From NCBI GenBank assembly GCA_021813505.1, contig JAKAKI010000038.1, positions 651 through 64,650 of the forward strand: a stretch of DNA of 64,000 nucleotides, read 5' to 3'. This DNA is from a bacterium (GTDB taxonomy: Bacteria; Zixibacteria; MSB-5A5; WJJR01). A model generated the notes under the pieces. The model was not told the origin of the DNA. It worked only from the letters and a program-made list of their open reading frames with translations, and searched no databases. Each line of letters opens with the position of its first letter. Positions within the stretch are counted from its first letter, which is position 1. The position numbers were made by a program, and so were the translations under genes. Shown one piece after another: positions 9,660-39,671 of this stretch.

Positions 9660-9686
9660 GGTCGTGAGAACATCCTTTTGAAACAA

Positions 9687-21865: not shown

Positions 21866-24800
21866 CTATCGCTTCGGACATGGATCGCAGAGGGGCTTGC
21901 CCTGACTGAAGATGTAGGACGTTACGGCATCGACATCCTTGCGGTTCACGACTCCGTCACAGTTCACGTCGCAGCGCTGGATCGCCGGGCAGGCGCCGGT
22001 GTCATTCAGCTTCTCAGCCTCGAAAACTACAGTGCACAGAATCGCCAGGTCGCTCACCGATACCTGACCATCGGTATCGATGTCGCCCGGTGCCGGGCAC
22101 CGGCACGGATCCAACGCCATGGCGGTCATCGGCACGCTATTGGACAGTGCCGAGAGTGACCCGCCACTGCAGTTCGTTCCATCCATCCGGATGCGCACAG
22201 TCAGCGACCACTTCCACGTGTTTCCGCACACCGATTGGCACTGCACCGTCGCGCGCACGTCTTCGTTGACGGTCGGCGTGTAAACCCAATACCCGCCTAT
22301 CAGCGTTCCCAAACCTCCAGAGACATAGCAGTCGACCAGCCCAATGGCGTTTGCATATAGAGGTATCATGATCGGGATCGACGGACAGGCATGTACGGTC
22401 GTGTCAAGGACCGGCTTGCAGACCGGCTTCAGGTTATCCCGTACAAAGGAGACTGTAAACGTCCCCTCGCAGAACGCCCCGCACGAATCGGTGCAACGGA
22501 TCGTCACGGTCACCGTGTCCGGGCCGTACGGCGTGTAGTTCCAGTTGCCACGCGACGAAATCTTACCCGGTCCCGACACGATCGTGCACGACTTGAAGTT
22601 GCCGTTCGCGTCAGTCGCACTCACCGGCAGACTGATCGTTGTCGGAATGCACTGCATGATGGTTGTGTCACGAGGCAGGTTGCATATCGGCGCGATATTG
22701 CCCTCGCACGGCGGAATCAACGACCGGTAGAGGATTGTCACACGGAACTGCGAACTGCAACTGTCGCACGCATCACGGCAACGGATTTCGACCAATACTG
22801 AGGTGTCCTTCGGCGCCGACCATGTGAAGCACCACTGGCCACCGGATAACGTTCCCGCACCGCTGATCTTGGTGCAGGTTACCGCGTCTCCGTCCACATC
22901 TGTACCACTCACCGGCAGACAGATCGTCACCGGTACAGTGGTCGTTGTGATTGAGGTGTCATGCGGCACGACGCAGACCGGCGGGTTGTTCGGCGTCTTC
23001 GTGACCAGCGCCACGTCCGTAGCCATACAGCCGTTTGCCGGATTGGTGACTGTCAACGTGTACGTCCCCGCTGCGTCCACGATCGGCGTGGCTGTCGTCG
23101 GACCCGACACGATGTGACCGCCGTTCGTCGCCGCCCAGCTGAAGGTGGCGCCCGGCGTGCTCGACGCACCCGACAGCGCAATCTGCGTCACCGTGCAGGT
23201 CAGAGCCTTGTCCGGTCCCGCATCCGCGTTCGGCAGTGTGTTGTCAAGGGTCACGGTAGCCGCGTCGCTGGCCTTACAACCGGTCGCCGTCACGGTCACC
23301 GTCAGAGTGTAGGTTCCCGGCTGGTCCACCAACGGCGTCGCCGTTGTGCCACCTGAAACGATGTGTCCACCAGCGGAGGCAACCCACGAGAAGGTCACGC
23401 CCGGAGTGCTGGACGAACCACTCAAGTTGATCTGTGTGACCGAGCAATTGAGCACCTTGTCGACACCGGCGCTCACGTTCGGAGTTGTCGCGTTTCGCGT
23501 CACCAGTGCCACGTCGGTCGCAGTACAGCCGTTGGTTGGATTGGTCACGGTCAGCGTGTACGTCCCCGGCTGATCCACCAGCGGGGTCGCCGTGTTTGCT
23601 CCCGAGACGATATGGCCACCCGCCGAAGCCACCCACGAGAACGTCGCTCCCGGAGTGCTCGACGAACCACTCAGGTTGATCTGCGTCACCGAGCAGGTCA
23701 GCACCTTGTCGGCGCCCGCGTCCGCATTCGGCGCCGTGTTGTTGCGGGTCACCGAGGCGACATCGGTCGCGGTACAGCCATTGGCCGGATTCGTGACCGT
23801 CAGCGTGTACGTGCCCGGCTGGTCGATCAGCGGTGTCGCCGTCGAACCACCCGAGACGATGTGACCGCCCGCCGACGCCACCCAGGAGAATGTCGCTCCG
23901 GGCGTCGAGGACGATCCGGAGAGATTCAACTGGGTTGCGGTGCAGGTCAGAATCTTGTCGGCACCGGCATTCGCGTTCGGCGCCGTGTTATTCAAGGTGA
24001 CCAATGCCACGTCGGTCGCTTTGCAACCGTTCGTGGGATTCGTCACGGTCAGAGTGTATGTCCCCGCCGCATCCACCGTCGGTGTGGCCGTTGTGCCGCC
24101 CGAGACGATGTGGCCACCTGCGGTTGCCACCCAGGTGAAGGTGACCCCGGGTGTCGAGGAGGATCCCGAGAGATTCAATTGCGTCACGGTGCAGGTCAGC
24201 ACCTTGTCGGTACCGGCGTTCGCGTTGGGCACCGCGTTGCTCTGCACGATCGTCGCCGCACACGAATCCTTGCAGCCATTCGGCAGGAAGGTCACGACGA
24301 CCCACTTTTGACCCGGTGTGTCATAGCGTGCGCACGATGTACCCTGTCCGGACAGAGGCGCCGGACGCCAGAGATACCTCACTATCGGGGTGGTCGATTT
24401 TCCGGCATCGAACCACTGCACGCAGGCACTTGCTTGCAGGCTGTCGCAGGTCAGCGTGTCGCCAAAACACTGGAGTCCCGGTTTGAAGATATCCTGCGAG
24501 ATCGTCGCCTCGCATGAATCCTTGCAGCCCGTCGCCAGAATCGTCACGACGACTTTCTTTTGACCCGGAGTGTCGTAACGGGCCCAAGGTGTGCCCTGTC
24601 CTGAAACCGGTGCCGGGCTCCAGAAATAGCTCAATCCATTCAGAGCTTTCCCGGCAGGCAGTGAGACCGAAGCCGTTGCCAGGACACTGTCGCAAGTCAG
24701 CACATCACCGGTGCAGCGAAGCTCAGGCTTGACGGTATTCTGTGTAATCTCCGTCGAACACGAGTCGGTGCAACCGTTCGCCAGATCCGTCACGACGGCC

Positions 24801-27800
24801 CACTTCGTCCCAGGGGCATTGTATCGTGCCCACGGTGTCCCCTGTCCGCTCACTGGAGATGGCTTCCACACGATGTTGTGCGTCCCGTTCATCTTCAGGC
24901 CCGGTGTTGTCAATGTGACGCTTGCGGTCGCCAGCAGGCTGTCACAGGTCAGTTCATCTCCGGAGCAGCGCAGCGACGGCTTCTCAATGTTCTGCGTGAT
25001 CACGGCCGAACACGAATCCTTACAACCGGTCGCCAGCACTGTTACGACCACCCACTTCGTCCCGGGTGAATCGTAACGCGCACTGGGAGTGCCCTGGCCA
25101 CTGATCGGCGCGGGGCTCCAGAGGTAGGAGTACGGCGACGGATTCGGATCCTTCCCTCGTCCCGGGAAAGTGACCGTTGCCGATCCCAGCAGGCTGTCGC
25201 AGGTCAGTTCATCGCCGGAGCAACTCAAGAGCGGCTTGTCGATGCTTTGCGTGATCGTCGCTTCGCAGGAGTCTTTGCAGCCCGTCGGCAGGTACGTCAC
25301 GACGACCTTCTTCTGGCCGGGCGTGTCGTACCGCGCGTTCATTGTTCCCTGTCCCGATATCGGCGCTGGCGTCCACAGGAAGGTGTATGGTTGGATCGCC
25401 TGAGAACCGGCGGTCGGGAAGATCACTGACGCTGTCGCCAGGAGGCTATCGCACGTCAGTTCGTCACCCGAGCAGGTGAACTCAGGTTTGAACTTGTTTT
25501 CCACCACGTCCACCGTGCACGTGTCCTTACAACCCGTCGCGAGAATCGTGACCACGACATGCTTGATTCCCGGCGTGTCGTAGACGGCCTGAGTCGTCCC
25601 TTGGCCCGACAAGGGCGAGGGATCCCAGAAGTAGCTGACGCCGACACTCGGGCCGGAGTTCACCCACGCGGTCGCCTGCAAATGCGCACACGTGATCGTG
25701 TCGGCTCCGCAACTGATTTCCGGACGGCGGATGTTTTGCGTGATTGTCGCTTGGCACGAGTCTTTGCAACCGGTCGCGGTGTACATCACGACCACTTTCT
25801 TCGGACCCGGTGTGTCGTAACGCGCCCACTGCGTTCCCTGGCCGCTGACCGGTTCCGGAGTCCACAAATAGGTCACGCCATTGGACGTCTTGCCCAGGTT
25901 GAACGACACCGACGCGGTCGCCAGCAGGCTGTCGCACGTCAGCTCATCGCCGTGACAACTGATCGACGGCTTGATGATGTTCTGTGTGATCACGGACGAG
26001 CAGGAGTCTTTGCAGCCCGTCGGCATGTAGGTCACGACTACCCACTTGGTGCCCGGTGTGTCGTAACGCGCTTCGGGTGTCCCCTGGCCACTGTTCGGAG
26101 ACGGACTCCAGAGGTAGCTCCACACCGGCCCCATCGCCTTTTGCGCCGATGGGAGTGTCACCGTCGCGGATGCGAGCAGACTGTCGCAGGTCAGCTCATC
26201 GCCATTGCAGGTCAAGATCGGTTTGACGATGTCCTGCGTGATCTCCGCCGAACAGGAGTCTTTGCAGCCCGACGGCGTGTAGGTTACTACGACCCACTTG
26301 GTTCCCGGCGTGTTGTAACGCGCATCCGGGGTTCCCTGGCCGGACAACGGCTCAGGGGTCCAGTGGAAGGTGAACGGGAACGGAATCTTTGACCCGGCCG
26401 TCCCCAACTGCACGGAGGCAGTCGCTTCCAGACTGTCGCAGGTCAGTTGGTCGCCCGAACAGGAGAGGACGGGCTTGTATATGTTTTGCTGGACGTCGAC
26501 GGTGCAGGAATCCTTGCAACCAGTCGCCAGAATCGTCACAATGACTTTCTTCGGACCCGGCGTGTCGTAGACGGCCTGAGTCGTCCCCTGGCCCGACAAG
26601 GGCGAGGGATCCCAGAAGTAGCTGACGCCGACATTGGGACTCGAGTTCGCCCACGCGGTCGCCTGCGGATGCGCACACGTGATCGTGTCGGCCCCGCAAC
26701 TGATTTCCGGACGCCGGATGTTCTGCGTGATCGTCGCGTCGCACGAGTCCTTGCAACCGGTGGCGGTGTACGTTACGACGACCTTCTTCGAACCCGGTGT
26801 GTCGTAACGCGCCCACTGCGTTCCCTGGCCGCTGACCGGTTCCGGAGTCCACAGATACGTCACGCCGTTTAAGGTCTTGCTTGGATCAAACGACACCGAT
26901 GCGGTCGCCAGCAGGCTGTCGCACGTCAGCTCATCGCCGTGACAACTGATCGACGGCTTGATGATGTTCTGCGTGATCACGGACGAGCAGGAGTCTTTGC
27001 AGCCCGTCGGCATGTAGGTCACGACTACCCACTTGGTGCCCGGTGTGTCGTAACGCGCTTCGGGTGTCCCCTGGCCACTGTTCGGAGACGGACTCCAGAG
27101 GTAGCTCCACACCGGCCCCATCGCCTTTTGCGCCGATGGGAGTGTCACCGTCGCGGATGCGAGCAGACTGTCGCAGGTCAGCTCATCGCCATTGCAGGTC
27201 AAGATCGGTTTGACGATGTCCTGCGTGATCTCCGCCGAACAGGAGTCTTTGCAGCCCGACGGCGTGTAGGTTACTACGACCCACTTGGTTCCCGGCGTGT
27301 TGTAACGCGCATCCGGGGTTCCCTGGCCGGACAACGGCTCAGGGGTCCAGTGGAAGGTGAACGGGAACGGAATCTTTGACCCGGCCGTCCCCAACTGCAC
27401 GGAGGCAGTCGCTTCCAGACTGTCGCAGGTCAGTTGGTCGCCCGAACAGGAGAGGACGGGCTTGTATATGTTTTGCTGGACGTCGACGGTGCAGGAATCC
27501 TTGCAACCAGTCGCCAGAATCGTCACAATGACTTTCTTCGGACCCGGCGTGTCGTAGACGGCCTGAGTCGTCCCCTGGCCCGACAAGGGCGAGGGATCCC
27601 AGAAGTAGCTGACGCCGACATTGGGACTCGAGTTCGCCCACGCGGTCGCCTGCGGATGCGCACACGTGATCGTGTCGGCCCCGCAACTGATTTCCGGACG
27701 CCGGATGTTCTGCGTGATCGTCGCGTCGCACGAGTCCTTGCAACCGGTGGCGGTGTACGTTACGACGACCTTCTTCGAACCCGGTGTGTCGTAACGCGCC

Positions 27801-30175
27801 CACTGCGTTCCCTGACCACTGACCGGTTCCGGAGTCCACAGATACGTCACGCCGTTTAAGGTCTTGCTTGGATCAAACGACACCGATGCGGTCGCCAGCA
27901 GGCTGTCGCACGTCAGCTCATCGCCGGTGCAACTGATCGACGGCTTGATGATGTTCTGCGTGATCACGGACGAGCAGGAGTCTTTGCAGCCGGTCAGCGA
28001 GTTGGTCACTACCACCCACTTGGTACCTGGAGTGTTGTATCTCGCGAACGGCGTTCCCTGGCCACTCAACGGCTCCGGCGTCCAGTGGAATGTGTAGGTG
28101 ACCGGGATCTTAGATTGCCCGACCAGTGCCACGGAGGCGGATGCCTCTGTGCTGTCGCACGTGAGTTCGTCTCCAGAACAGTTCAACACCGGTTTGGCGA
28201 TGTTTTGCTGCACATCCACGGTGCATGTGTCTTTGCAACCCGAACTCAGGATCGTCACTACGACACGCTTGACTCCCGGCGAGCCATACACCGCCTGTGT
28301 TGTTCCCTGGCCGCTGATCGGCGCCGGCTCCCAAAGGTAGCCCACGCCTTCGCTTGGGTTTGACGTCACCCACGCCGTTGCCTGAGGCCTCGCGCAGGTG
28401 ATTGTGTCGGCTCCGCAGCTCACTTCCGGCTTACGGATGTTCTGCGTGATCGTGGCCTCGCACGAATCCTTGCAGCCGTTGGCGAGAATCGTGACAACGA
28501 CCTTTTTGGAACCGGGTGTGTCGTAACGGGCGAATCGCGTCCCCTGTCCGCTGATCGGGGTGGGACTCCAGAGATAGCTGACCCCCTCCGAGGGGTTCGA
28601 CGTCACTGCCGCGGTGGCGAGCAGGCTGTCGCAGGTCAATTCATCCCCGGTGCAAACCAGCGCGGGTTTGCGCTGATCGACCGTGACCAGTGCGGAATCC
28701 ATCGCCTTGCAGCCATTTGCCGGATTCGTTACCGTTAGAATGTACTTTCCTCCAGCATCGACAAGCGGCGTTGAGGTCGTACCTCCCGAGACGATGTGGC
28801 CGCCCTCGGTTGCGAGCCAACTGAATGTGACAGACGGAGTCGTGGAGGAGCCGGAAAGGGTCACCATAGTCTCTGAGCAGGTGATGACCTTGTCGGCGCC
28901 GGCATTCGCGTTCGGCAGTGTGATATTGCGGGTTACGAGGGCCGTATCGACGGCGGTGCAGATACAACTGACACCTTCCACCGAGGCCGTTAGATTCGAG
29001 CTGTCAAAGCCGCCGGCCTTGCTGGAGCTTGAACTGCCGAATGACCGGGTCACGGTCAGAATGTAAGTCCCCGGAGCATCGACGATGGGGGTCAGCGTGT
29101 TTGCACCGCTGACGATGTGTCCGCCCCCTGTTGCTGTCCAATGGTAGGTGCTATTCGGTGTGGAGGATGATCCTTCGAGCATAAGCTGGGTTTTATCGCA
29201 GGTCAGAACCTTGTCGGGACCGGCATCCGCTTCTGCGCCGAGATTCAAGTTGACGCTTATCGGATCAACGAAGTCCTTCAATTCCGCGGTTGGCGAATCG
29301 GACGACTTGGTGCGAATGAACACGACCGGCACGGCGATGCAGGGATTCAGATTCTTGAGCAGCTTCGTCATGTTGAGGGCGGCTTCGCCGAATGCGTTCT
29401 TCACGTATGTCGTGCTGCCGAACGCTCCGAACGGCACCCATACGGCCGAGTCGATGTTCGCCGCGGTGTACGCGGCGCCGGAGGGCGGTGTGTAGTTATG
29501 GTACTTGAATCCTGAAGGCGCGCCGCCATCGGCCTCCCAGCGCTGAACCTTGAAAATAGCCTGCGAGCCGCCATTGCTCAAATCGATGGTGATCAGGATG
29601 TCGCCGACGGTGCGTCCGCCATTGGGTCCAAGGGAGGTGAATGTGGAGTCAGGGTTCTTGACGAGCGAATTCTGGAGAAACTCGAAATCGATATAGCTCG
29701 TGCCGGTGACGGACTTGCGGTCGCCGGCGACCATCACCCAAATATTCCCGGATCCATCAACGAGCCAACTGAACAGCGCGTTATTGATGTCATCCTTCGG
29801 GGGAACGCTTCCCGCCTTCCACGTGTAGGTGTTGGGATTATCGCTGACCTTCTGGCTGGCGGCGCCGAAGACAGTCAAGTCTGCCCCGCCGTACCCATCC
29901 AGGCTGTGATAGGTCTTGGTCGGATCCACTGGAATGCCGGTGTTCGTGAGAACCGCCGTGGATGCCGCGTTGGCACCGGGCACCCAATCATTGGTGGTGC
30001 CATATGGCACACCACTGGGTGACCTGGAGAGAAGGTTCCCATCGATTCCGAATCCGGCCGCAACGCCGGGGCCTTGCGCGAAGGCGCCGGTGGTGAGGAC
30101 CAGAAACGGTATGAACGCGGTGAGCGTGGTCCGAACCGTGGACCGGATGATCCGGGGAATGTACGGGCAGGTCAT
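21866..30175 (-). CDS. giant repeat-rich cell-surface protein (2769 aa): signal peptide, ~290-aa N-terminal domain, 2 PKD-like repeats, 18 four-cysteine ~82-aa repeats, 5 PKD-like repeats, Ig-like modules, C-terminal dockerin-like EF-hand pair
   Basis: Single uninterrupted ORF. Start at ATG (MTCPYIPRIIRS...signal FIPFLVLTTGAFAQG) with GGAG SD. PKD-like units NANAGxDKVLTCxVTQxNLSGSSSTPGxTFSWVAxAGGHIVSGGxTATPxVDxxGTYTLTVTNPxNGC. Four-Cys units C.GDxLTCDSLxATASV...Y.W.PxPxSGQGT..ARYDTPGxKxVVVT...GCKDSC...ITQNI.KP. C-terminus GDIDTDGQVSVSDLAIL...CDVNCDGVVNRKDVDAVTSYIF. Confidence 0.85.
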   Translation of the reverse strand: MTCPYIPRIIRSTVRTTLTAFIPFLVLTTGAFAQGPGVAAGFGIDGNLLSRSPSGVPYGTTNDWVPGANAASTAVLTNTGIPVDPTKTYHSLDGYGGADLTVFGAASQKVSDNPNTYTWKAGSVPPKDDINNALFSWLVDGSGNIWVMVAGDRKSVTGTSYIDFEFLQNSLVKNPDSTFTSLGPNGGRTVGDILITIDLSNGGSQAIFKVQRWEADGGAPSGFKYHNYTPPSGAAYTAANIDSAVWVPFGAFGSTTYVKNAFGEAALNMTKLLKNLNPCIAVPVVFIRTKSSDSPTAELKDFVDPISVNLNLGAEADAGPDKVLTCDKTQLMLEGSSSTPNSTYHWTATGGGHIVSGANTLTPIVDAPGTYILTVTRSFGSSSSSKAGGFDSSNLTASVEGVSCICTAVDTALVTRNITLPNANAGADKVITCSETMVTLSGSSTTPSVTFSWLATEGGHIVSGGTTSTPLVDAGGKYILTVTNPANGCKAMDSALVTVDQRKPALVCTGDELTCDSLLATAAVTSNPSEGVSYLWSPTPISGQGTRFARYDTPGSKKVVVTILANGCKDSCEATITQNIRKPEVSCGADTITCARPQATAWVTSNPSEGVGYLWEPAPISGQGTTQAVYGSPGVKRVVVTILSSGCKDTCTVDVQQNIAKPVLNCSGDELTCDSTEASASVALVGQSKIPVTYTFHWTPEPLSGQGTPFARYNTPGTKWVVVTNSLTGCKDSCSSVITQNIIKPSISCTGDELTCDSLLATASVSFDPSKTLNGVTYLWTPEPVSGQGTQWARYDTPGSKKVVVTYTATGCKDSCDATITQNIRRPEISCGADTITCAHPQATAWANSSPNVGVSYFWDPSPLSGQGTTQAVYDTPGPKKVIVTILATGCKDSCTVDVQQNIYKPVLSCSGDQLTCDSLEATASVQLGTAGSKIPFPFTFHWTPEPLSGQGTPDARYNTPGTKWVVVTYTPSGCKDSCSAEITQDIVKPILTCNGDELTCDSLLASATVTLPSAQKAMGPVWSYLWSPSPNSGQGTPEARYDTPGTKWVVVTYMPTGCKDSCSSVITQNIIKPSISCHGDELTCDSLLATASVSFDPSKTLNGVTYLWTPEPVSGQGTQWARYDTPGSKKVVVTYTATGCKDSCDATITQNIRRPEISCGADTITCAHPQATAWANSSPNVGVSYFWDPSPLSGQGTTQAVYDTPGPKKVIVTILATGCKDSCTVDVQQNIYKPVLSCSGDQLTCDSLEATASVQLGTAGSKIPFPFTFHWTPEPLSGQGTPDARYNTPGTKWVVVTYTPSGCKDSCSAEITQDIVKPILTCNGDELTCDSLLASATVTLPSAQKAMGPVWSYLWSPSPNSGQGTPEARYDTPGTKWVVVTYMPTGCKDSCSSVITQNIIKPSISCHGDELTCDSLLATASVSFNLGKTSNGVTYLWTPEPVSGQGTQWARYDTPGPKKVVVMYTATGCKDSCQATITQNIRRPEISCGADTITCAHLQATAWVNSGPSVGVSYFWDPSPLSGQGTTQAVYDTPGIKHVVVTILATGCKDTCTVDVVENKFKPEFTCSGDELTCDSLLATASVIFPTAGSQAIQPYTFLWTPAPISGQGTMNARYDTPGQKKVVVTYLPTGCKDSCEATITQSIDKPLLSCSGDELTCDSLLGSATVTFPGRGKDPNPSPYSYLWSPAPISGQGTPSARYDSPGTKWVVVTVLATGCKDSCSAVITQNIEKPSLRCSGDELTCDSLLATASVTLTTPGLKMNGTHNIVWKPSPVSGQGTPWARYNAPGTKWAVVTDLANGCTDSCSTEITQNTVKPELRCTGDVLTCDSVLATASVSLPAGKALNGLSYFWSPAPVSGQGTPWARYDTPGQKKVVVTILATGCKDSCEATISQDIFKPGLQCFGDTLTCDSLQASACVQWFDAGKSTTPIVRYLWRPAPLSGQGTSCARYDTPGQKWVVVTFLPNGCKDSCAATIVQSNAVPNANAGTDKVLTCTVTQLNLSGSSSTPGVTFTWVATAGGHIVSGGTTATPTVDAAGTYTLTVTNPTNGCKATDVALVTLNNTAPNANAGADKILTCTATQLNLSGSSSTPGATFSWVASAGGHIVSGGSTATPLIDQPGTYTLTVTNPANGCTATDVASVTRNNTAPNADAGADKVLTCSVTQINLSGSSSTPGATFSWVASAGGHIVSGANTATPLVDQPGTYTLTVTNPTNGCTATDVALVTRNATTPNVSAGVDKVLNCSVTQINLSGSSSTPGVTFSWVASAGGHIVSGGTTATPLVDQPGTYTLTVTVTATGCKASDAATVTLDNTLPNADAGPDKALTCTVTQIALSGASSTPGATFSWAATNGGHIVSGPTTATPIVDAAGTYTLTVTNPANGCMATDVALVTKTPNNPPVCVVPHDTSITTTTVPVTICLPVSGTDVDGDAVTCTKISGAGTLSGGQWCFTWSAPKDTSVLVEIRCRDACDSCSSQFRVTILYRSLIPPCEGNIAPICNLPRDTTIMQCIPTTISLPVSATDANGNFKSCTIVSGPGKISSRGNWNYTPYGPDTVTVTIRCTDSCGAFCEGTFTVSFVRDNLKPVCKPVLDTTVHACPSIPIMIPLYANAIGLVDCYVSGGLGTLIGGYWVYTPTVNEDVRATVQCQSVCGNTWKWSLTVRIRMDGTNCSGGSLSALSNSVPMTAMALDPCRCPAPGDIDTDGQVSVSDLAILCTVVFEAEKLNDTGACPAIQRCDVNCDGVVNRKDVDAVTSYIFSQGKPLCDPCPKR
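25950..27860 (-). repeat. near-perfect tandem duplication of a 987-bp (329-codon, four-domain) super-repeat inside the giant gene
   Basis: ORF-track fragments are identical or 1-2 aa different at a constant +987 offset: 26352..26852 vs 27339..27839; 26370..26570 vs 27357..27557; 26447..26872 vs 27434..27859; tail of 25559..26392 vs 26939..27379. A third, diverged copy follows (to ~28.4 kb) and a diverged copy precedes (~25.0-25.9 kb). Confidence 0.9.
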
Positions 30176-30594: not shown

Positions 30595-30624
30595 CGAGGC
30601 GGGGATTTTTGATCCCCGCCTCGG
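30595..30624. terminator. hairpin CGAGGCGGGGAT-TTTTG-ATCCCCGCCTCG between the two giant genes
   Basis: 11-bp perfect stem 27 bp past the stop (30651) of the upstream giant gene. Stem sequence related to the 21812 hairpin (GAGGCGGG...). No clean U-tract. Confidence 0.45.
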
Positions 30625-30650
30625 AAGTTACTGCTATCGTCGTGATCGGA

Positions 30651-33600
30651 TTACCGTTTCGGACACGGATCGCACAACGATTTCCCCTGGCGGAACATGT
30701 ATGATGTCAGGGCGTCAACGTCCTTGCGATCCACGATGCCGTCGCAGTTCACGTCGCAACGCTGGATCTCCGGACAGGAGCCAGTTGTAGTGACTGTCTC
30801 GACTCTGTAGATAACGTTGCACAAAACCGCCAGATCGCTCACCGACACCTGGCCGTCGGCATCGATGTCACCCGGCGCCGGACAGCGGCAAGGATCGGGA
30901 GCTGATGCTGTCATTGGCATGCTGACCGATGGATCGGTTGCAATGGCCGACGCACAGTTACCGTCCATCCGGACACGCACGGTCAGTGACCACTTCCACG
31001 ACTTCCCGCAGAAGGACTGGCACTGCACAGTTACCCGAACGTCCTCGTTCACCGTCGGCACGTACACCCAGAATCCGTCCGCCAATGCTCCCGGACCGGC
31101 TACTATATACGCGTTGACCATTCCGACGGCGTTTGCGTACAGTGGAATCGTGATCGGGATCTCGGCGCACGCATGTACGGTCGTGTCAAGGACCGGCTTG
31201 CAGACCGGCTTCAGGTTATCCCGCACGAAAGAAACTGTAAACGTCCCCTCGCAGAACGCCCCGCACGAATCGGTGCAACGGATCGTCACCGTCACCGTGT
31301 CCGGGCCGTAAGGCGTGTAGTTCCAGTTGCCGCGCGACGAAATCGTGCCGGGACCGGAGATGATCTTACACGACTTGAAGTTTCCGTTCGCGTCGGTGGC
31401 CGAAAGCTTCAGGCTCACGGTTGTCGGGATGCACTGCACAATCGTCGTGTCATGCGGAAGATTGCATTCCGGTGCGATGTTTCCTTCGCATGGGGATACC
31501 GGCGACTGATAGAGGATTGTCACACGGAACTGCGAACTGCAACTGTCACACGCATCGCGGCAGCGGACTCCGACCAATACTGAGGTGTCCTTCGGCGCGC
31601 TCCATGTGAAGCACCACTGGCCGCCCGACAGCGTACCCGCACCGCTGATCTTGGTGCAGGTTACCGCGTCTCCGTCCACATCTGTACCACTCACTGGCAG
31701 ACAGATCGTCACCGGTACCGTGGTCGTTGTGATCGACGTGTCATGCGGCACCACGCACACCGGCGGGTTGTTCGGCGTCTTCGTGACCAGCGCCACGTCC
31801 GTAGCCATACAGCCGTTTGCCGGATTGGTGACTGTCAACGTGTACGTCCCCGCTGCGTCCACGATCGGCGTGGCTGTCGTCGGACCCGACACGATGTGAC
31901 CGCCGTTCGTCGCCGCCCAACTGAAGGTGGCGCCCGGCGTGCTCGACGCACCCGACAGCGCAATCTGCGTGATCGTACAGGTCAGGGCCTTGTCCGGTCC
32001 CGCATCCGCGTTCGGCAGCGTGTTGTCAAGGGTCACGGTAGCCGCGTCGCTGGCCTTACAACCGGTCGCCGTCACGGTCACCGTCAGGGTGTACGTGCCC
32101 GCCTGGTCCACCAACGGCGTCGCCGTTGTGCCACCCGAGACGATATGCCCGCCACCGGAAGCGACCCAGTTGAAGGTAACTCCCTGTGTCGTCGAAGATC
32201 CGGAGAGGTTGATCGAAGTTACCGAGCAATTGAGCACCTTGTCGACACCGGCGCTCACGTTCGGGGTTGTCGCGTTTCGGGTCACCAGTGCCACGTCGGT
32301 CGCAGTACAGCCGTTGGTTGGATTGGTCACGGTCAGCGTGTACGTCCCCGGCTGATCCACCAGCGGGGTCGCTGTGTTCCCACCCGAGACGATATGGCCA
32401 CCCGCCGAAGCCACCCAGGAGAAGGTCACGCCCGGGGTGCTCGACGATCCACTCAGGTTGATCTGTGTCACCGAGCAGGTCAGCACCTTGTCGGCGCCTG
32501 CATCCGCGTTCGGTGTCGTGTTGTTGCGGGTCACCGAGGCGACATCGGTCGCGGTACAGCCGTTGGCTGGATTCGTCACCGTCAGCGTGTACGTGCCCGG
32601 CTGGTCAATCAGCGGTGTCGCCGTCGAACCACCCGAGACGATGTGGCCGCCCGCCGACGCCACCCAGGAGAATGTCGCTCCGGGCGTCGAGGACGATCCG
32701 GAGAGATTCAACTGGGTTGCGGTGCAGGTCAGAATCTTGTCGGCACCGGCGTTCGCGTTCGGTGGAGTGTTGTTTAAAGTAACCAATGCCACATCGGACG
32801 CCTTGCAACCGTTCGTAGGATTGGTCACGGTCAGCGTGTATGTCCCCGCCGCATCCACCGTCGGGGTGGCCGTTGTGCCGCCCGAGACGATGTGGCCACC
32901 CGCCGATGCCACCCAGTTGAAGGTGACCCCGGGTGTCGAGGAGGATCCCGAGAGATTCAATTGCGTCACGGTGCAGGTCAGCACCTTGTCGGTACCCGCG
33001 TTCGCATTTGGCACTGCGTTGCTCTGCACGATCGTCGCCGCACACGAATCCTTGCAACCGTTCGGCAGGAAGGTCACGATCGCCCACTTCTGTCCAGGCG
33101 TGTCATACCGTGCGCACGCCGTTCCCTGACCAGAGACCGGCTCGGGACGCCACTGGTAACTCAGGATTGGCGTGGACGTCTTCGAGGCATCGAACCAGTA
33201 CACGCAGGCAGTTCCCTGCAGACTGTCGCAGGTCAGCGTGTCGCCGAAACACTGCAATTCCGGTTTGAAGATATTCTGCGTGATTGTGGCAGCGCACGAG
33301 TCCTTGCAACCCGTTTCCGGAATGGTGATGATCACCCACTTCGTCCCCGGGGTGTCATAGCGCGCAAAGGGCGTGCCCTGACCGCTTACCGGTGACGGTT
33401 TCCACAAGTAGCTAAAGCCATTCAGTGCCTTGCCTGATTGCGGCAGATTCACTGAGGCTGTGGCCAGCACGCTGTCGCAGGTCAATTCGTCACCCGAACA
33501 GCCGAATTCCGGTGTCCTGGCGTTTTGCATGATCTCGGCGGAACATGAGTCTTTGCAGCCCGACGCCAGATCCGTCACAACCACCCACTTCGTGCCCGGC

Positions 33601-36600
33601 GTGTCGTAGCGGGCAAATGGCGTTCCCTGACCGCTCAACGGCGCAGGACTCCACACGATAATCACTGTGCCATTTGTCTTCTGGCCGGGCGCACCGATCG
33701 TGACACTCGCTGTCGCCTGCAGACTGTCGCAGGTCAGAACGTCACCCGAACAACTCAGGGACGGCTTCTCGATCTTCTGCGTGATCACGGCCGAACACGA
33801 GTCTTTGCAGCCTGTCTCCAGAACCGTTACCACAACCCACTTCGTGCCGGGACTGTCGTAACGTGCATTGGGTGTTCCCTGGCCGCTAATCGGCGCCGGA
33901 CTCCAGACATAAGAGTATACTGCCGGATTCGGATTCTTCGCCTGCTCGATGAAGTTTACCGAGGCGGACGCCAGGAGGCTGTCGCAGGTGAGTTCATCAC
34001 CGGAGCAGCTCAAGAACGGCTTGTCGATACTTTGAGTGATCGTCGCTTCGCACGAGTCCTTGCAGCCAGTCGGTCCGTACGTCACCACCACTTTCTTCTG
34101 ACCCGGCGTATCGTAACGTGCCCACGGCGTCCCCTGGCCGCTGATCGGCTCCGGACTCCATACGATGAGGAACGGAATGAACGCCTGCGATCCCGCACTC
34201 GGGAATTGCAGCGACGCGGTCGCCAGCAGGCTGTCGCAGGTCAATTCATCACCTGAGCAGATGAATTGCGGTTTGTACAAGTTCTCCTGGATGTCCACGG
34301 TGCAGGTGTCTTTGCAGCCGGATTCCAGAATCGTTACCACAACACGCTTAATTCCTGGTGTGTCGTAAACGGCCTGCGTCGTCCCCTGGCCCGACAATGG
34401 CGCCGGATCCCAGAAGTAGCTGACGCCCACGCTCGGGCCTGAGTTCACCCAGGCGGTCGCGTGTGGATGCGCGCACGTGATTGTATCCGCGCCGCATGCG
34501 ACTTCCGGGCGCCGCGTGTTCTGCGTGATGTTCGCTTCGCACGAGTCCTTGCAGCCCGTGGCGGTGAACGTCACGACGACTTTCTTCCAACCCGGCGCAT
34601 CGTAACGCGCCCACTGAGTTCCCTGGCCGCTGATCGGTTCGGGGGCCCACAGGTACGTCACGCCATTTAGTATCTTGCTTGGGTCAAACGACACCGACGC
34701 GGTCGCCAGCAGGCTGTCGCACGTCAGTTCGTCGCCATGACAACTGATCGACGGCTTGATGATGTTCTGCGTGATCACGGACGAGCAGGAGTCTTTGCAC
34801 CCTGTCGGTAGATACGTCACGACGACCCACTTAGTGCCCGGTGTGTCGTATCTCGCAAACGGAGTTCCCTGGCCACTGATCGGCGCCGGGCTCCAGAAAT
34901 AGCCCCACACATCGACGAGCAGCTTCTGCGCGTCGGTCAGATTGACCGTCGCCGAGGCCAGCAGGCTGTCGCAGGTCAGCTCATCACCGGAACAGCTTAG
35001 CAGCGGCTTGATGACATCCTGCGCGATCTCCGCCGAACACGAGTCCTTGCAACCCGACGGCGTATAGGTCACCACCACCCACTTGGTCCCCGGTGTATTG
35101 TAACGCGCCTCCTGTGTCCCCTGGCCGGAAATCGGCTCGGGAGTCCAGTAGAAGGTGAACGGGAACGGAATCTTCGATGCGGCCGACACCAACTGCACGG
35201 AGGCGGTCGCTTCCAGGCTATCGCAGGTCAATTGGTCACCCGAGCAGGAAAGGACAGGCTTGTATATGTTTTGCTGAACGTCGACGAGGCAGCTGTCTTT
35301 GCATCCCGTGGCCAGAATGGTCACAACGACAACTTTGATACCGGGGGTGTCGTAAACGGCCTGCGTGGTTCCCTGGCCGGTGATCGGAGCCGGATTCCAG
35401 AAGTAGCTCACACCTTCACTGGGACTCGAGTTCACCCAGGCGGTCGCCTGCGGATGCACACACGTGATCGTGTCGGCTCCGCAACTGATCTCCGGACGGC
35501 GGGTGTTCTGCGTGATCGTCGCTTCGCAAGAGTCTTTGCAGCCGGTTGGCGTGTAGGTCACGACGACCTTCTTCGGACCCGGGGTATCATAACGCGCCCA
35601 CGGCGTTCCCTGGCCACTCAACGGATCAGGCGACCAGAAGAAAGTGAGCGGCGGCGGAATCTTGGCGTCATCCAGTACGATGCTCACCGAAGCAGTCGCC
35701 TGCAGGCTGTCACAGGTCAATTCGTCACCGGCGCAGAGCAGTTTGGGTTTGTAGGTATCTTGAACGATGTCAACGCTGCAACTGTCTTTGCAACCGGTCG
35801 CGGCAATCGTCACGGTCACCCACTTGATGCCGGGGGAGTCGTAGACGGCCTGGCTGGTTCCCTGCCCGCTCACTGGGGCCGGATTCCAGAAGTAAGTGAT
35901 GCCTTCGACGACACTCGATTGGACTGTGGCAGTCGCCTGCAGTTTGTTGCAGGTGATTGAATCGGCGTGACAGCTCAGCTCCGGCTTGGCGATATGCTGC
36001 GTGATTTCGGCTTCGCAGGAGTCCTTGCAGCCAGAATCGAGGACGGTCACCACGACCTTCTTAAATCCCGGCGTGTCATAACGCGCCAGGTTGGTCCCCT
36101 GGCCGCTCACGGGCGCGGGCGTCCAGAAGTAACTGATGTTGGTCAGCGACTTGGATTGCCCGCCCAGTAACACCGAAGCGGTGGCCAGAAGGCTGTCGCA
36201 GGTCAGATCATCACCGGAGCAGATCGGGACCGGCTTAACAGCGTTTTGCTCGACTATCGCCTCGCACGAATCCTTGCAACCGCTGCTCAGGATCGTCACG
36301 ACGACTTTCTTGGCGCCGGGCGCGTTGTACAGAGCGTGCGAAGAGCCCTGGCCGGAAAGCGGCGCGGGGTCCCAATTGTAGCTGACCGGCTCGGTGATAT
36401 TCGTGCTGACCGAGACACTCGCCATGACCGTGTTGCAGGTCAGGGTGTCGCCCGTGCAGGTCAGATTCGGCTTGCGGATATTCTGGGTGATTGTCGCTTC
36501 ACACGAATCAACGCAGCCATTGGCCGGGTTGGTGACAATTACCCACTTGGATCCCGGAGAATCGTAGCGGGCAATCGCCGTACCCTGGCCGCTGACCGGC

Positions 36601-39600
36601 GCGGGTTTCCATTCATAGGTGACACCGACCGCCGGATTGGAGATCACCGAAGCTGTCGCCAGGAGACTGTCGCAAGTCAGGTCATCTCCCGCGCAAGTCA
36701 ACACCGGCTTGGTGCGGTCGATCGTGACGAGCGCTGTGTCGTAGGCACTACAGTGAGTTTCAGGATTCGTCACCATGAGGACATAGGTACCGGCAGCGTC
36801 CACGATCGGAGAGGGGCTCGAGGCTCCCGACACGATGTGGCCACCGGAGTACGCGCTCCAGCTAAAGTTCACACCTGGAGTCGAGGAGGAGCCGTGCAAT
36901 GTGTCCAGCGTATTGGCACAGGTCAGGACCTGGTCCGCACCGGCGTTGACGTTGGGTCTGCTGATATCCCGCGTGACCAATGCTCCATCGGTCGCGGTAC
37001 AACCGTTGGCCGGATCCGTCACTGTCAGCGTGTAGGTTCCGGGGGCGTCAACCAGCGGCGAGGCCGTGGTTGAGCCGGAGACGATGTGTCCGCCATTGGA
37101 GGCCAGCCAACTGAAGGCGGCTCCCGGCGTGGTGGAGGATCCTGAGAGGTTGACTTGAGACACTTCGCAATTGAGGAACTTGTCCGGGCCGGCATTCGCA
37201 TTCGGCTTGGAAACATTGGACGTGACCAGTGCCGTGTCGAGCTTGGTGCAGCCGTTGGCGGGATTTGTCACGGTGAGGACATACGTGCCCGCGGAATCGA
37301 CCAGCGGGGTCGCAGTGCTGCCACCGGAAACTATATGGCCGCCATCGTAGGCCGCCCAACTGAAGGTGGCACTCGGAGTGCTCGATGATCCCGCAAGATT
37401 GACCTGCACCACTATGCAATTGAGAACTTTGTCCGGACCGGCATTGGCGTTGGGAGGCGCGGTATTCGCTGTGACCAGCGCGGTATCTGCCTTCGTACAG
37501 CCATTGGCCGGGTTCGTCACGGTCAGCACATAAGTTCCGGCCGCATCCACCAGAGGCGATGCGGTCGTGCCGCCGGAGACGATATGCCCACCGGCAAACG
37601 CGCCCCAACTGAATGTCGCACCGGGCGTGCTGGAGGAACCGGACAGATTGATCTGAGTCACCAGACAGGTAAGGACTTTGTCGGCACCGGCGTTGGCATT
37701 CGGCTTGGCCGTGTCCACCGTTACAAGCGCCGTATCTTTCTTCGTGCAACCATTGGCCGGATCGGTCACGGTCAGGATATAGGTTCCGGCCGCGTCGACC
37801 AGCGGGGTTGCAGTGGAGCCACCCGACACGATGTGCCCACCCGCCGCCACCGCCCAGGAGAATGTCGCCGACGGCGTGGTTGACGAACCATCGAGATTAA
37901 CCTGAGTGACAGTGCACGTGAGAACCTTGTCCGGACCCGCGTTGGCATTCGGCTTGGCCGTGTTGACGGTGACCAATGCCGTGTCCTTATCGGTACAGCT
38001 ATTGGAAGGATCGGTAACGGTCAAAACGTAGGTGCCGGCCGCATCGACTGTCGGAGTGGCGGTCGAGCCGCCGGAGACGATGTGACCGCCGCCGGTTGCC
38101 GTCCAGGAGAAGTTGATTCCGGGGGGCGTCGACGAACCCGAGAGCTGGACCTGCGACACGAGGCAAGTCAGGGCCTTGTCTGGACCAGCATTCGCAATGG
38201 TCGGGCAAATCGGGAAGGCATGATGGCCGATGGGCGCGTTGGACGGAGTCGCAACGGTATGTTCACCATCTGAGGCCGTGAAATAGTATTGAATGCTATC
38301 GCCGGAGCAAAGCAACTGACTGGCCGGCACCGTTGCGCAGAACGTGCTGTCCGTTCGCGTGGTCGCAACTGATGTGTATGATGTTGGACCATTTCGATAG
38401 AACAAGTTCACGGTCAGCGACGCGAGCGGCGTGTCTTTGTCTGTGACCCAGGCACAAAGCTGGACATTGGTCTTGGCCTTCTGGCAGATATTGTCCAGCG
38501 CAATGGTTGGCGGCGTGCGCTTGATGACCGGCGGGGCCTTTTCGCAATAATCGCCCGTGTCGCACGGTGCGCAGGTCAAATCAGCATTCTGATGGCAGAC
38601 GACAACCTGGTGGCAATCGCCGTCGGGGATTGTATCGATGCTGTTGTAGCAGATTTTGTAGCGTGTGCACAAGCGTTCCTTGATCGCGTCGTAGATCGAA
38701 TCGAGTTCCGCGCCGCTGGGGGCATGGAAGTGCGAACCACCGGATCCATTCGACAGCGAGACCAGATAGTGCGGATCAAAGTCGCTGCCCAGACTGATGG
38801 TATAGATCGGGATTCCGGCACCGAGTGCGAGACCGACGATCAGAGTCGAGTCATCGGTGAATCCGTTGTTAGGCTGGCTGCCGTTCAAGCCGTTCGGCGT
38901 GGCCGAAGTCCCGCAGTTCTGGCTTTCGTTTTCCAGACCATCGGTGAGGGCGATGACCGCCTTGCTGCCGAGTTCGGTCGTGGTCAGGCTGACGCCCTTC
39001 CAGGTGCCGTCGAAGAAGGCTGTCCTGCCGCTGGCGGACAGGCTATTAATGCCGGAGATGAGAAGCGCCGTGTCGCTGGTGAAATTCTGGACAACGGTGT
39101 AGCAGTCTGAGAACTTGACGATCGCCGTGCGATCATAGATCGACATCGCCCGCACGAACCGGCGTGCGGCATCCTTGGCTGCGGTAATCTTGCTGTTCGT
39201 GCCCATGCTGCCCGACACGTCAATCACCAGACAGGTTGACGTGCGGCACGAATCGCCGGTAAGCTCCTGAATCGTAAACTCGCTCATCCGGAAGCCGTCC
39301 TGGTAGACGCAGAAGCTATCTGCCGGGAGGTGGGGGATTGGAAGCCCGTTGGGATCGAGCACTTCAACGTAGGTGCAAATGAGCGGGAACAAACTCGCGT
39401 CGATCGACCCCAGGAAGACATCGGAGACGCCATTGACGCTTGCCGGCGAGAGAATGGAGGTGACTTTTGCCGCGGTGGTCAACGTGGGGCGTTGCTCGAC
39501 CATGTACGGGTCATCGGGCGTGCCAAGGTTGATCATCTTCTTCTCACTGGGGGCCGCGCCCAGGGCGATGACCGAAAGCGATATGGCCGCCAGGATCGCG

Positions 39601-39671
39601 CGAATGATCCATCCCAAGCGGGAGATTCCGCGCCGACCGTTCGGGGTGTACGACTTGTACAATTGCGACAT
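30651..39671 (-). CDS. giant repeat-rich cell-surface protein (3006 aa): signal anchor, VWA domain, 6 PKD-like repeats, 15 four-cysteine ~82-aa repeats, 5 PKD-like repeats, Ig-like modules, dockerin-like C-terminus
   Basis: Single ORF. ATG with GAGGAG SD. N-terminus MSQLYKSY...WIIRAILAAISLSVIALGAA. VWA/MIDAS CLVIDVSGSMG...AIVKFSD...IALTDGLEN. C-terminal ~800 codons nearly identical in nucleotide sequence to the neighbouring giant gene. Confidence 0.85.
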   Translation of the reverse strand: MSQLYKSYTPNGRRGISRLGWIIRAILAAISLSVIALGAAPSEKKMINLGTPDDPYMVEQRPTLTTAAKVTSILSPASVNGVSDVFLGSIDASLFPLICTYVEVLDPNGLPIPHLPADSFCVYQDGFRMSEFTIQELTGDSCRTSTCLVIDVSGSMGTNSKITAAKDAARRFVRAMSIYDRTAIVKFSDCYTVVQNFTSDTALLISGINSLSASGRTAFFDGTWKGVSLTTTELGSKAVIALTDGLENESQNCGTSATPNGLNGSQPNNGFTDDSTLIVGLALGAGIPIYTISLGSDFDPHYLVSLSNGSGGSHFHAPSGAELDSIYDAIKERLCTRYKICYNSIDTIPDGDCHQVVVCHQNADLTCAPCDTGDYCEKAPPVIKRTPPTIALDNICQKAKTNVQLCAWVTDKDTPLASLTVNLFYRNGPTSYTSVATTRTDSTFCATVPASQLLCSGDSIQYYFTASDGEHTVATPSNAPIGHHAFPICPTIANAGPDKALTCLVSQVQLSGSSTPPGINFSWTATGGGHIVSGGSTATPTVDAAGTYVLTVTDPSNSCTDKDTALVTVNTAKPNANAGPDKVLTCTVTQVNLDGSSTTPSATFSWAVAAGGHIVSGGSTATPLVDAAGTYILTVTDPANGCTKKDTALVTVDTAKPNANAGADKVLTCLVTQINLSGSSSTPGATFSWGAFAGGHIVSGGTTASPLVDAAGTYVLTVTNPANGCTKADTALVTANTAPPNANAGPDKVLNCIVVQVNLAGSSSTPSATFSWAAYDGGHIVSGGSTATPLVDSAGTYVLTVTNPANGCTKLDTALVTSNVSKPNANAGPDKFLNCEVSQVNLSGSSTTPGAAFSWLASNGGHIVSGSTTASPLVDAPGTYTLTVTDPANGCTATDGALVTRDISRPNVNAGADQVLTCANTLDTLHGSSSTPGVNFSWSAYSGGHIVSGASSPSPIVDAAGTYVLMVTNPETHCSAYDTALVTIDRTKPVLTCAGDDLTCDSLLATASVISNPAVGVTYEWKPAPVSGQGTAIARYDSPGSKWVIVTNPANGCVDSCEATITQNIRKPNLTCTGDTLTCNTVMASVSVSTNITEPVSYNWDPAPLSGQGSSHALYNAPGAKKVVVTILSSGCKDSCEAIVEQNAVKPVPICSGDDLTCDSLLATASVLLGGQSKSLTNISYFWTPAPVSGQGTNLARYDTPGFKKVVVTVLDSGCKDSCEAEITQHIAKPELSCHADSITCNKLQATATVQSSVVEGITYFWNPAPVSGQGTSQAVYDSPGIKWVTVTIAATGCKDSCSVDIVQDTYKPKLLCAGDELTCDSLQATASVSIVLDDAKIPPPLTFFWSPDPLSGQGTPWARYDTPGPKKVVVTYTPTGCKDSCEATITQNTRRPEISCGADTITCVHPQATAWVNSSPSEGVSYFWNPAPITGQGTTQAVYDTPGIKVVVVTILATGCKDSCLVDVQQNIYKPVLSCSGDQLTCDSLEATASVQLVSAASKIPFPFTFYWTPEPISGQGTQEARYNTPGTKWVVVTYTPSGCKDSCSAEIAQDVIKPLLSCSGDELTCDSLLASATVNLTDAQKLLVDVWGYFWSPAPISGQGTPFARYDTPGTKWVVVTYLPTGCKDSCSSVITQNIIKPSISCHGDELTCDSLLATASVSFDPSKILNGVTYLWAPEPISGQGTQWARYDAPGWKKVVVTFTATGCKDSCEANITQNTRRPEVACGADTITCAHPHATAWVNSGPSVGVSYFWDPAPLSGQGTTQAVYDTPGIKRVVVTILESGCKDTCTVDIQENLYKPQFICSGDELTCDSLLATASLQFPSAGSQAFIPFLIVWSPEPISGQGTPWARYDTPGQKKVVVTYGPTGCKDSCEATITQSIDKPFLSCSGDELTCDSLLASASVNFIEQAKNPNPAVYSYVWSPAPISGQGTPNARYDSPGTKWVVVTVLETGCKDSCSAVITQKIEKPSLSCSGDVLTCDSLQATASVTIGAPGQKTNGTVIIVWSPAPLSGQGTPFARYDTPGTKWVVVTDLASGCKDSCSAEIMQNARTPEFGCSGDELTCDSVLATASVNLPQSGKALNGFSYLWKPSPVSGQGTPFARYDTPGTKWVIITIPETGCKDSCAATITQNIFKPELQCFGDTLTCDSLQGTACVYWFDASKTSTPILSYQWRPEPVSGQGTACARYDTPGQKWAIVTFLPNGCKDSCAATIVQSNAVPNANAGTDKVLTCTVTQLNLSGSSSTPGVTFNWVASAGGHIVSGGTTATPTVDAAGTYTLTVTNPTNGCKASDVALVTLNNTPPNANAGADKILTCTATQLNLSGSSSTPGATFSWVASAGGHIVSGGSTATPLIDQPGTYTLTVTNPANGCTATDVASVTRNNTTPNADAGADKVLTCSVTQINLSGSSSTPGVTFSWVASAGGHIVSGGNTATPLVDQPGTYTLTVTNPTNGCTATDVALVTRNATTPNVSAGVDKVLNCSVTSINLSGSSTTQGVTFNWVASGGGHIVSGGTTATPLVDQAGTYTLTVTVTATGCKASDAATVTLDNTLPNADAGPDKALTCTITQIALSGASSTPGATFSWAATNGGHIVSGPTTATPIVDAAGTYTLTVTNPANGCMATDVALVTKTPNNPPVCVVPHDTSITTTTVPVTICLPVSGTDVDGDAVTCTKISGAGTLSGGQWCFTWSAPKDTSVLVGVRCRDACDSCSSQFRVTILYQSPVSPCEGNIAPECNLPHDTTIVQCIPTTVSLKLSATDANGNFKSCKIISGPGTISSRGNWNYTPYGPDTVTVTIRCTDSCGAFCEGTFTVSFVRDNLKPVCKPVLDTTVHACAEIPITIPLYANAVGMVNAYIVAGPGALADGFWVYVPTVNEDVRVTVQCQSFCGKSWKWSLTVRVRMDGNCASAIATDPSVSMPMTASAPDPCRCPAPGDIDADGQVSVSDLAVLCNVIYRVETVTTTGSCPEIQRCDVNCDGIVDRKDVDALTSYMFRQGKSLCDPCPKR

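Follow-up and report, generated by a model that had tools for sequence, protein, structure and literature searches.

Two tandem giant Ig-repeat proteins with dockerin tails as candidate fibrillar surface adhesins of a Zixibacteria bacterium

Introduction

A 64-kb stretch of DNA from a Zixibacteria bacterium (contig JAKAKI010000038.1 of assembly GCA_021813505.1, positions 651 to 64,650 of the forward strand; hereafter the window) carries two adjacent genes, here designated A and B, which encode modular proteins of 3006 and 2769 amino acids (aa). What are these giants, and what could hold them on the cell? An initial annotation of the window, made from the letters and their open reading frames (ORFs), described a repeat stalk shared by two proteins with different N-terminal heads and suggested either a pair of paralogous adhesins or a gliding-motility-like surface system. 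Here we report a computational follow-up of this locus. The adhesin half of that suggestion fits the modular architecture of both proteins, and we consider it probable (roughly 60%) that the two paralogs act as surface adhesins of the fibrillar kind, i.e., rods held by a C-terminal dockerin.

Results

Gene A (39671..30651, minus strand) starts with ATG and is an uninterrupted ORF of 3006 aa; it is the upstream gene of the pair. Gene B lies on the same strand in an open frame at 30289..21866, and translation from the ATG at 30175 (21866..30175) yields a 2769-aa product identical to library protein P0088. As first described, the two giant ORFs are co-oriented and intact in the window, of which they jointly occupy 17.3 kb (27%). 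Their heads are unrelated, and the stalk and tail are common to both: the proteins are 73% identical over aa 575-3006 of A and aa 316-2770 of B (B numbered in this comparison from a GTG one codon upstream), and the last 5 kb of the two genes are 83% identical at the DNA level, in line with the proposed paralogy. Protein A has an exact copy in NCBI on a 66.8-kb contig. Its 90% cluster, and likewise that of the BshC protein from the window, has members that carry the annotation candidate division Zixibacteria. A genome of the same genus, JACRMA01, shows 86-90% DNA identity and synteny on the A side of the locus, and its A gene is broken at a contig end.

The ORF list and its translations resolve protein A into a VWA head, an Ig-like stalk, and a dockerin tail. 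The chain opens with a signal or membrane-anchor segment recognized by eye (RRGISRLGWIIRAILAAISLSVIALGAA; aa 1-40, 39552..39671, minus strand, as are all features of A and B below). A VWA domain follows (aa 143-335, 38667..39245), and a Cys-containing linker domain without a Pfam match (aa 378-491, 38199..38540) leads from it to the stalk. The stalk consists of six 83-aa PKD-like/Ig_7 units (aa 492-989, 36705..38198), fifteen four-Cys Ig-like units of 79-85 aa (aa 990-2221, 33009..36704; counted over aa 993-2221 by motif and alignment), another five PKD-like/Ig_7 units (aa 2222-2636, 31764..33008), and three Cys-rich Ig-like modules of ~90 aa (aa 2637-2905, 30957..31763). A Cys-rich dockerin with two Ca-binding loops (DIDADGQVSVSD and DVNCDGIVDRKD; aa 2925-3006, 30654..30899) ends the protein.

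Protein B, read in the same manner, combines a head without a Pfam match with the same kind of stalk and tail. Its N-terminus is a hydrophobic segment, signal-like to the eye, ending AFA with QG following; signal peptides had been claimed for both proteins, and such segments are present in both. The head (aa 34-314, 29234..30076) is as unrelated to that of A as originally stated, and slightly smaller (~280 aa) than the ~290 aa given then. Next come two PKD-like units (aa 315-504, 28664..29233), the first of which contains a 24-aa Ser-rich insertion, and eighteen four-Cys Ig-like units (aa 505-1983, 24227..28663; motif count). The rest of the chain is formed by five PKD-like units (aa 1984-2398, 22982..24226), three Cys-rich Ig-like modules colinear with those of A (aa 2399-2668, 22172..22981), and a Cys-rich dockerin (aa 2688-2769, 21869..22114). 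The counts of 15 and 18 four-Cys units, as well as the two blocks of ~83-aa PKD-like repeats (6+5 copies in A, 2+5 in B), the Ig-like modules and the C-terminal dockerin, reproduce what the initial annotation had listed.

The PKD-like units were delimited by Pfam matches and periodicity, which is exactly 83 aa in A; the Pfam models used were PKD (PF18911), Ig_7 (PF19081), and K319L-like PKD (PF22352). The units score above the gathering thresholds of Ig_7 (102.6 bits in A, 51.8 in B), K319L-like_PKD (65.7 and 47.8 bits), and PKD_4 (44.1 and 31.0 bits); for example, the E-values in A are 1.5e-29 for Ig_7 and 4e-18 for K319L-like_PKD. They are ordinary Ig_7/K319L-like PKD/PKD_4 domains. The second, five-unit block is the part in which A and B are most alike (~90-95% DNA identity). 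Taken together, the predicted layout of both proteins is that of fibrillar adhesins, with a repeated stalk, a distal putative adhesive head, and an anchoring module at the opposite end.

The main stalk unit had been singled out as a four-Cys repeat that resembles, without obviously belonging to, the SprB and HYR families. An alignment of 20 units shows no variation at the four Cys and at about 17 other positions (including W, P.P, GQG, Y, PG, K, G, and P), in agreement with the consensus motif proposed at the outset. No Pfam model matched this unit, either in searches of the whole proteins (E ≤ 0.01) or in searches of single units (E ≤ 10), where only chance-level matches appeared; the best of these was PKD_4 (E 0.07), in 1 of the 20 units. 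In particular, the SprB repeat (PF13573) was found neither in A and B at E ≤ 0.01 nor in single units at E ≤ 10, and HYR (PF02494) and HYR_4C (PF23237) matched neither the proteins nor single four-Cys units. HYR_4C units, which occur in homologues of the B head, follow the pattern ...CP..V.C...P...ATDNC....RTWTATD.CGN...C.Q.I.V and differ from the four-Cys unit in Cys spacing and motif. Membership of the SprB or HYR family is thereby ruled out, as the first reading had suspected.

The repeat is unannotated in Pfam; it appears less exotic than the first reading implied. When the profile of the 20 units was aligned by hhalign to the profile of the PKD-like units of the same proteins, the two matched with 93% probability (E 3e-7), and Cys8 and Cys61 of the four-Cys unit fell on the two Cys of the PKD-like unit; therefore, Cys1 and Cys65 would be the added pair, which probably forms a second disulfide. 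An AlphaFold2 (AF2) model of a four-Cys di-unit (predicted local distance difference test score, pLDDT, 90) consists of two all-beta domains, and a Foldseek search with it returned tandem Ig rods, namely titin, Hoc (phage), intimin, and Aureispira GhpA, at template modeling (TM) scores of 0.5-0.56. Judged from the profile alignment and the model, the four-Cys unit is probably a PKD/Ig_7-type Ig-like domain in diverged form, to which a second Cys pair appears to have been added.

The distribution of this unit is narrow. A word-indexed homologue search with the four-Cys profile recovered 2 fragments only. An exhaustive HMMER search matched 1993 proteins at E ≤ 1e-3 among 1.84 billion representatives; of the best 150 matches, 7 show the four-Cys spacing in at least two units and a few others in a single unit. 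The remaining matches were sampled with three giants, which proved to be PKD/Ig_7 proteins, all with CHU_C at the end. In a scan of one genome per species, true four-Cys loci occurred on six contigs (L005-L010) from five Zixibacteria metagenome-assembled genomes (MAGs), two of the contigs being from JACRMA01 and RBG-1 being among the genomes; elsewhere, they were limited to one MAG labelled Ignavibacteria and one unclassified MAG. The four-Cys unit is thus essentially restricted to Zixibacteria.

The two heads were then compared with known families. That the upstream protein begins with a VWA/MIDAS domain is confirmed: the head of A matches VWA_2 (2e-12; 44.7-47.9 bits, cut-off 27) and VWA (3e-8; 34.4 bits, cut-off 23.8), and the metal-ion-dependent adhesion site (MIDAS) is complete in sequence (DVSGS...T...D, i.e., DVSGS, the T in SGRTAF, and the D in LTDG). 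It also matches TIGR03436 over 270 residues (2e-16), at 60 bits against a family cut-off of 81. The linker domain behind the VWA domain is conserved in a paralog encoded in JACRMA01 (paralog C; L008:3158-13993, JACRMA010000116.1, 3611 aa), whose A-type VWA head is 64% identical to that of A over aa 1-491. Sequence searches with either head against the PDB gave no significant match.

Searches of Pfam, NCBIfam, and PDB sequences with the head of B gave no match. Its 85 homologues, 33-53% identical to it, come from Zixibacteria, Chitinivibrionia, Verrucomicrobia, and a wide range of Bacteroidota, including Flavobacterium, Lutibacter, and Saprospiraceae. In the homologue sequences read, the head is N-terminal and stands ahead of the repeats, which are of the HYR_4C, SprB, Ig_7, or PKD_6 type. 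Most of the homologues are fragments ending at contig ends; wherever the context is readable, a type IX secretion system (T9SS) sorting domain is present, for example a type A domain in P0083 and in the ORF after the head gene in Flavobacterium sp. AED. In Lutibacter sp. (L053:10001-17657, JBTSEY010000003.1), a B-head homologue opens a broken giant Ig_7 gene that ends in CHU_C and is followed by PorP/SprF and then an OmpA/PD40 protein, a classic type B T9SS adhesin cassette. By sequence, the B head belongs to an unannotated but widespread family of more than 85 proteins that caps giant T9SS adhesins. Its AF2 model is good (pLDDT 83.6, predicted TM score 0.83), and a Foldseek search of the PDB gave nothing significant (best E-value 0.03). 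With modest confidence, we read the head as a large beta-sandwich, distantly CBM9/DOMON-like (CBM, carbohydrate-binding module), and probably as a ligand-binding module, perhaps for a glycan.

At the other end of the chain, Dockerin_1 (PF00404) scores above its cut-off of 22.9 bits in A (27.9-31.8 bits) and in B (25.4 bits), and both Ca-binding loops are intact. The tails are accordingly predicted to be type I dockerins, with a duplicated putative Ca-binding loop plus helix. With 9 Cys in about 80 aa, they contain an unusual number of Cys. They are preceded by the three Cys-rich modules, which fall slightly short of the Big_9 model (2e-4, 22.5 bits, cut-off 23.6). The same modules occur in P0089, in P0246-P0251, and in a protein of the RBG-1 Zixibacteria genome. 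The complete cassette, in which a Cys-rich dockerin follows three Cys modules, is seldom seen; besides P0089, we found six relatives, all of them fragments on short contigs.

Zixibacteria relatives combine the same repeats with other anchors. The RBG-1 protein (L007:9299-13537, AUYT01000001.1, 1412 aa) has four four-Cys units and Big_9-like Cys modules, after which come a cohesin (34.7 bits against a threshold of 24.1), a dockerin-like module, and the T9SS sorting domain Por_Secre_tail. Cohesin, dockerin, and C-terminal sorting domain (CTD) recur in one chain in P0095. In paralog C, 23 units are PKD-like and 6 are of the four-Cys type; behind them lie a cohesin-like module whose PDB cohesin matches are weak (E 0.1-0.26), a dockerin-like module, and a type A Por_Secre_tail; an 864-aa ORF upstream of it likewise ends in Por_Secre_tail.

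A different possibility is that the dockerin marks A and B as cargo of a cohesin scaffold, and that they are the substrate-capture parts of a cellulosome-like, polymer-degrading assembly, their heads binding insoluble polysaccharide or protein particles for feeding and not for attachment itself. The dockerin modules themselves, the CBM9-like fold of the B head, and the relatives with cohesin and CTD would all suit such a role, and there is a precedent in Cloacimonadota, for which a CTD-anchored cohesin scaffold and proteins with signal peptide and dockerin have been inferred (PMC8542988). However, no catalytic domain was found in A or B, and the window contains no dockerin-bearing glycoside hydrolase or peptidase; the prolyl oligopeptidase at 44620..46875 lacks a dockerin, and the CBM assignment of the B head is weak. 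We regard this feeding role as unlikely.

The integrity of the pair was examined in other public assemblies of the same population. Two of these, L001 (GCA_027457245.1, DAIEEG010000041.1) and L002 (ENA ERZ27237563, contig k141_1729918, assembled by MEGAHIT at k141), each contain a single 3007-aa gene instead of two, with a loss of about 8.8 kb. This gene is identical to A, bar one mismatch, up to about nucleotide 7800 and thereafter identical to B including the downstream flank. DUF2279 comes directly after the fused gene, along with TetR and the remainder of that operon. The crossover falls where A and B have their longest run of exact identity, 161 bp at 31759..31919 (partner in B, 22977-23137; minus strand). 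In addition, self-comparison revealed a 987-bp tandem duplication inside B (25986..27814, minus strand), in which four-Cys units 4-7 equal units 8-11 and 842 bp are 100% identical (25986-26827 = 26973-27814). Behind this direct repeat stands a duplication of very recent date or a copy number that the assembly did not resolve, which makes the count of 18 four-Cys units in B uncertain.

These data bear on whether the two-gene structure is itself a product of assembly, the real genome having one giant gene or other repeat numbers. Both the chimera in L001 and L002 and the 842-bp exact repeat, which short reads cannot count, speak for it. On the other side, the switch falls exactly within the 161-bp stretch, which is longer than the k of 141, so a mis-join in L001 and L002 would look just like this; the A tail, the B head, and the 475-bp spacer between the genes consist of unique sequence, for which the window shows the only possible linear order; and JACRMA01 is syntenic up to the A gene, where it breaks at a contig end. 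A collapse or mis-join is the likelier origin of the fusion, and a real deletion variant in the population is possible. We consider it improbable that the gene pair is an artefact. The interruption by assembly error that the initial annotation had named as fatal to its claim is thus absent from the window, where both ORFs are intact, and is touched upon only by the fusion in the other two assemblies.

The remaining part of the initial proposal placed A and B next to T9SS cargo and an ABC-2 exporter and likened them to gliding adhesins. Nearby, a single gene does encode a product that bears a type A T9SS sorting domain (43069..44508, plus strand, 479 aa), 3.4 kb from the A/B locus; this protein comprises an unannotated N-terminal domain of ~210 aa, a long Thr/Asp/Ser-rich linker, and the CTD. 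A and B themselves are not such cargo: neither protein, including the last 316 aa, matched a type A (PF18962/TIGR04183) or type B (PF13585/TIGR04131) sorting domain, and no Por_Secre_tail, CHU_C, TIGR04183, or other CTD match was obtained. By contrast, T9SS CTDs were matched in the 43069..44508 neighbour and in the relatives L007, L008, P0092, and P0095. The exporter is not GldA/GldF, since its ATPase scores 159 bits against GldA (TIGR03522; cut-off 402.6) and its best matches are DrrA (264.9 bits) and DrrB (155.8 bits). The window lacks gld, spr, and porP genes.

SprB-like gliding adhesins, T9SS cargo moved by gld/spr machinery with the ABC-2 exporter as GldA/F, are accordingly very unlikely here. 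What recommends them is that these are giant Ig-repeat proteins of an FCB-group (Fibrobacterota-Chlorobiota-Bacteroidota) organism, that a CTD protein is close by, and that homologues of the B head sit on SprB-repeat and CHU_C proteins, one of them beside PorP/SprF in Bacteroidota; yet A and B have neither a CTD nor an SprB repeat, the exporter is DrrAB-like, and the machinery is missing from the window, leaving the gliding reading unsupported. Least credible are cell-cell contact or prey-capture filaments like the Aureispira grappling hook GhpA, which is the only solved protein with a sequence match (E 2e-4) and ranks with the top structural matches to the four-Cys di-unit, but whose likeness is limited to generic Ig-like repeats, since A and B lack a hook or neck region and a CTD and show no sign of oligomerisation.

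The surroundings of the pair are housekeeping genes. They include glnA, an SPFH/NfeD pair, selB-selA-tRNASec, bshB/bshA/bshC, a TetR-OEP-MFP-AcrB efflux operon, and a DUF2279 lipoprotein gene, as well as the DrrAB-like ABC-2 exporter, the 479-aa protein with the T9SS sorting domain, the prolyl oligopeptidase, three tRNAs, a sigma-54 response regulator, and two paired NADH-dependent oxidoreductase genes. A scan of 21.5-40.7 kb for promoters and terminators gave counts under the shuffled expectation and was uninformative on co-transcription of A and B.

Several of these loci deserve a separate mention. The selenocysteine locus is compact (6138-9784, minus strand), with tRNA-Sec at 9688-9784, selA at 8301-9713, and selB at 6138-8213. 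The Rfam small RNA Acido-Lenti-1 matches at 10834-10878 (minus strand; 50.7 bits, gathering score 37), directly upstream of the PIG-L/BshB-like gene of the bshB-bshA-bshC cluster. The region 47291-53909 (minus strand) encodes a 1063-aa protein in which NuoF-like (FMN/4Fe-4S) domains are fused to GltD-like domains of pyridine-nucleotide oxidoreductases. Beside it lie a NuoE-like 2Fe-2S protein, which is extended by Zn ribbons, and a protein with a Glu_synthase domain; the fusion and its neighbours may be an electron-bifurcating module. Lastly, a 482-aa plus-strand ORF (54218-55666) has no family match and is apparently the shadow of a 451-aa minus-strand ORF (54317-55672), which, from its sequence, looks like a sigma-54-dependent response regulator.

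Discussion

We propose that A and B are dockerin-held fibrillar adhesins that work as follows. Both proteins would be exported by Sec via their N-terminal signals, and their 129 (A) and 119 (B) Cys would be oxidized during folding outside the cytoplasm. About 28-30 Ig-like domains, counting the PKD-like units, the four-Cys units, and the three Cys-rich modules, would then form a rod with a length of the order of 100 nm that keeps a ligand-binding head off the cell, i.e., a metal-dependent VWA/MIDAS domain in A and a distantly CBM9/DOMON-like beta-sandwich in B. The C-terminal dockerin would be the attachment end, most likely inserted into the cohesin of a T9SS-anchored surface protein of the same cell. 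Because Zixibacteria relatives with the same repeats carry cohesin or cohesin-like, dockerin-like, and T9SS-CTD modules, dockerin-cohesin docking would be the most economical mechanism; the surface location and the binding of ligands are likewise what we infer from the architecture.

Some results weigh against this proposal. A cohesin is absent from the 64-kb window. The CTD protein at 43069..44508, whose N-terminal segment looks cohesin-like by eye, is not supported as the partner: hhalign against the Zixibacteria cohesin-like modules gave 0.2%, and phmmer against the PDB found nothing. Moreover, neither A nor B shows a recognised signal for export across the outer membrane, which leaves the exit of a 300-kDa rod from the periplasm unexplained.

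Compared to known systems, A and B are a lineage-specific version of the giant Ig-repeat fibrillar adhesins of the FCB group, such as the large CHU proteins of Cytophaga, SprB of Flavobacterium, RemA, and other T9SS cargo with PKD, Ig_7, or HYR repeats. They share with these the multi-thousand-residue Ig-repeat chain, PKD-like units that match Ig_7, K319L-like_PKD, and PKD_4, and a distinct N-terminal head, that of B being homologous to the heads of SprB-, HYR_4C-, and Ig_7-repeat proteins. They differ in having a Cys-rich dockerin tail in place of a T9SS CTD, in lacking a PorP/SprF neighbour, and in a main stalk unit, the four-Cys variant, that every Pfam model fails to see. The Aureispira protein GhpA (PDB 9flp/9flu/9g8b) is likewise a giant Ig-repeat filament, weakly similar in sequence and more clearly so in structure (TM score about 0.5) in the repeat region; however, it is T9SS cargo that forms heptameric hooks, to which, as to its neck, nothing in A or B bears a likeness. 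The head of A has the same complete DxSxS...T...D MIDAS as VWA/MIDAS adhesins and the TIGR03436 ('acidobact_VWFA') family, but the members of that family are small proteins rather than heads of 3000-aa rods, and A scores below its cut-off.

For the tail, the closest parallels are non-cellulosomal cohesin-dockerin systems, e.g., the CTD scaffoldin of 'Ca. Stygibacter' (Cloacimonadota) and Cag_2038/Cag_2037 of Chlorochromatium. In these, as in A and B, a predicted signal and a C-terminal dockerin frame large non-catalytic Ig-repeat proteins; the cohesin-bearing proteins, there and among the Zixibacteria relatives, have a T9SS CTD. In Chlorobiota, a filament of 18 BIg domains with a C-terminal dockerin has been modelled as binding a cohesin (bioRxiv 10.64898/2026.03.19.712371). 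A and B differ from these systems in that their dockerin is Cys-rich and follows three Cys-rich modules, and the cohesin-bearing relatives found here have a dockerin of their own. Our search of the literature on Zixibacteria with dockerin or T9SS found no papers.

A more far-reaching and tentative idea, which we think doubtful as a whole, is that Zixibacteria build a cohesin-dockerin surface layer, in which T9SS-anchored cohesin giants would serve as sockets into which dockerin-only proteins such as A and B are plugged, with interchangeable heads (VWA, CBM-like) on a common disulfide-stapled stalk. The cohesin giants, bearing their own dockerin, would possibly also be chain-forming units. If this were true, the cassette with its Cys-rich dockerin would represent a novel way of anchoring fibrillar adhesins in diderm bacteria, and an unknown outer-membrane route for rods without a CTD would be implied.

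The locus has several implications. Public assemblies of one population disagree here, which indicates that the numbers and lengths of repeat-protein genes in MAGs are not to be trusted without long reads. Two unannotated families, the four-Cys stalk unit and the widespread adhesin head, are candidates for domain databases, and their addition would improve the annotation of many giant proteins now called hypothetical. The locus also illustrates module shuffling: one stalk bears different heads within the pair, and across relatives one head is combined with varying anchors, from a dockerin only to cohesin plus dockerin plus T9SS CTD. Finally, the replacement of the usual T9SS anchor by a dockerin in A and B leads to the hypothesis that an uncultured phylum of the FCB group may display its adhesins through cohesin-dockerin pairing.

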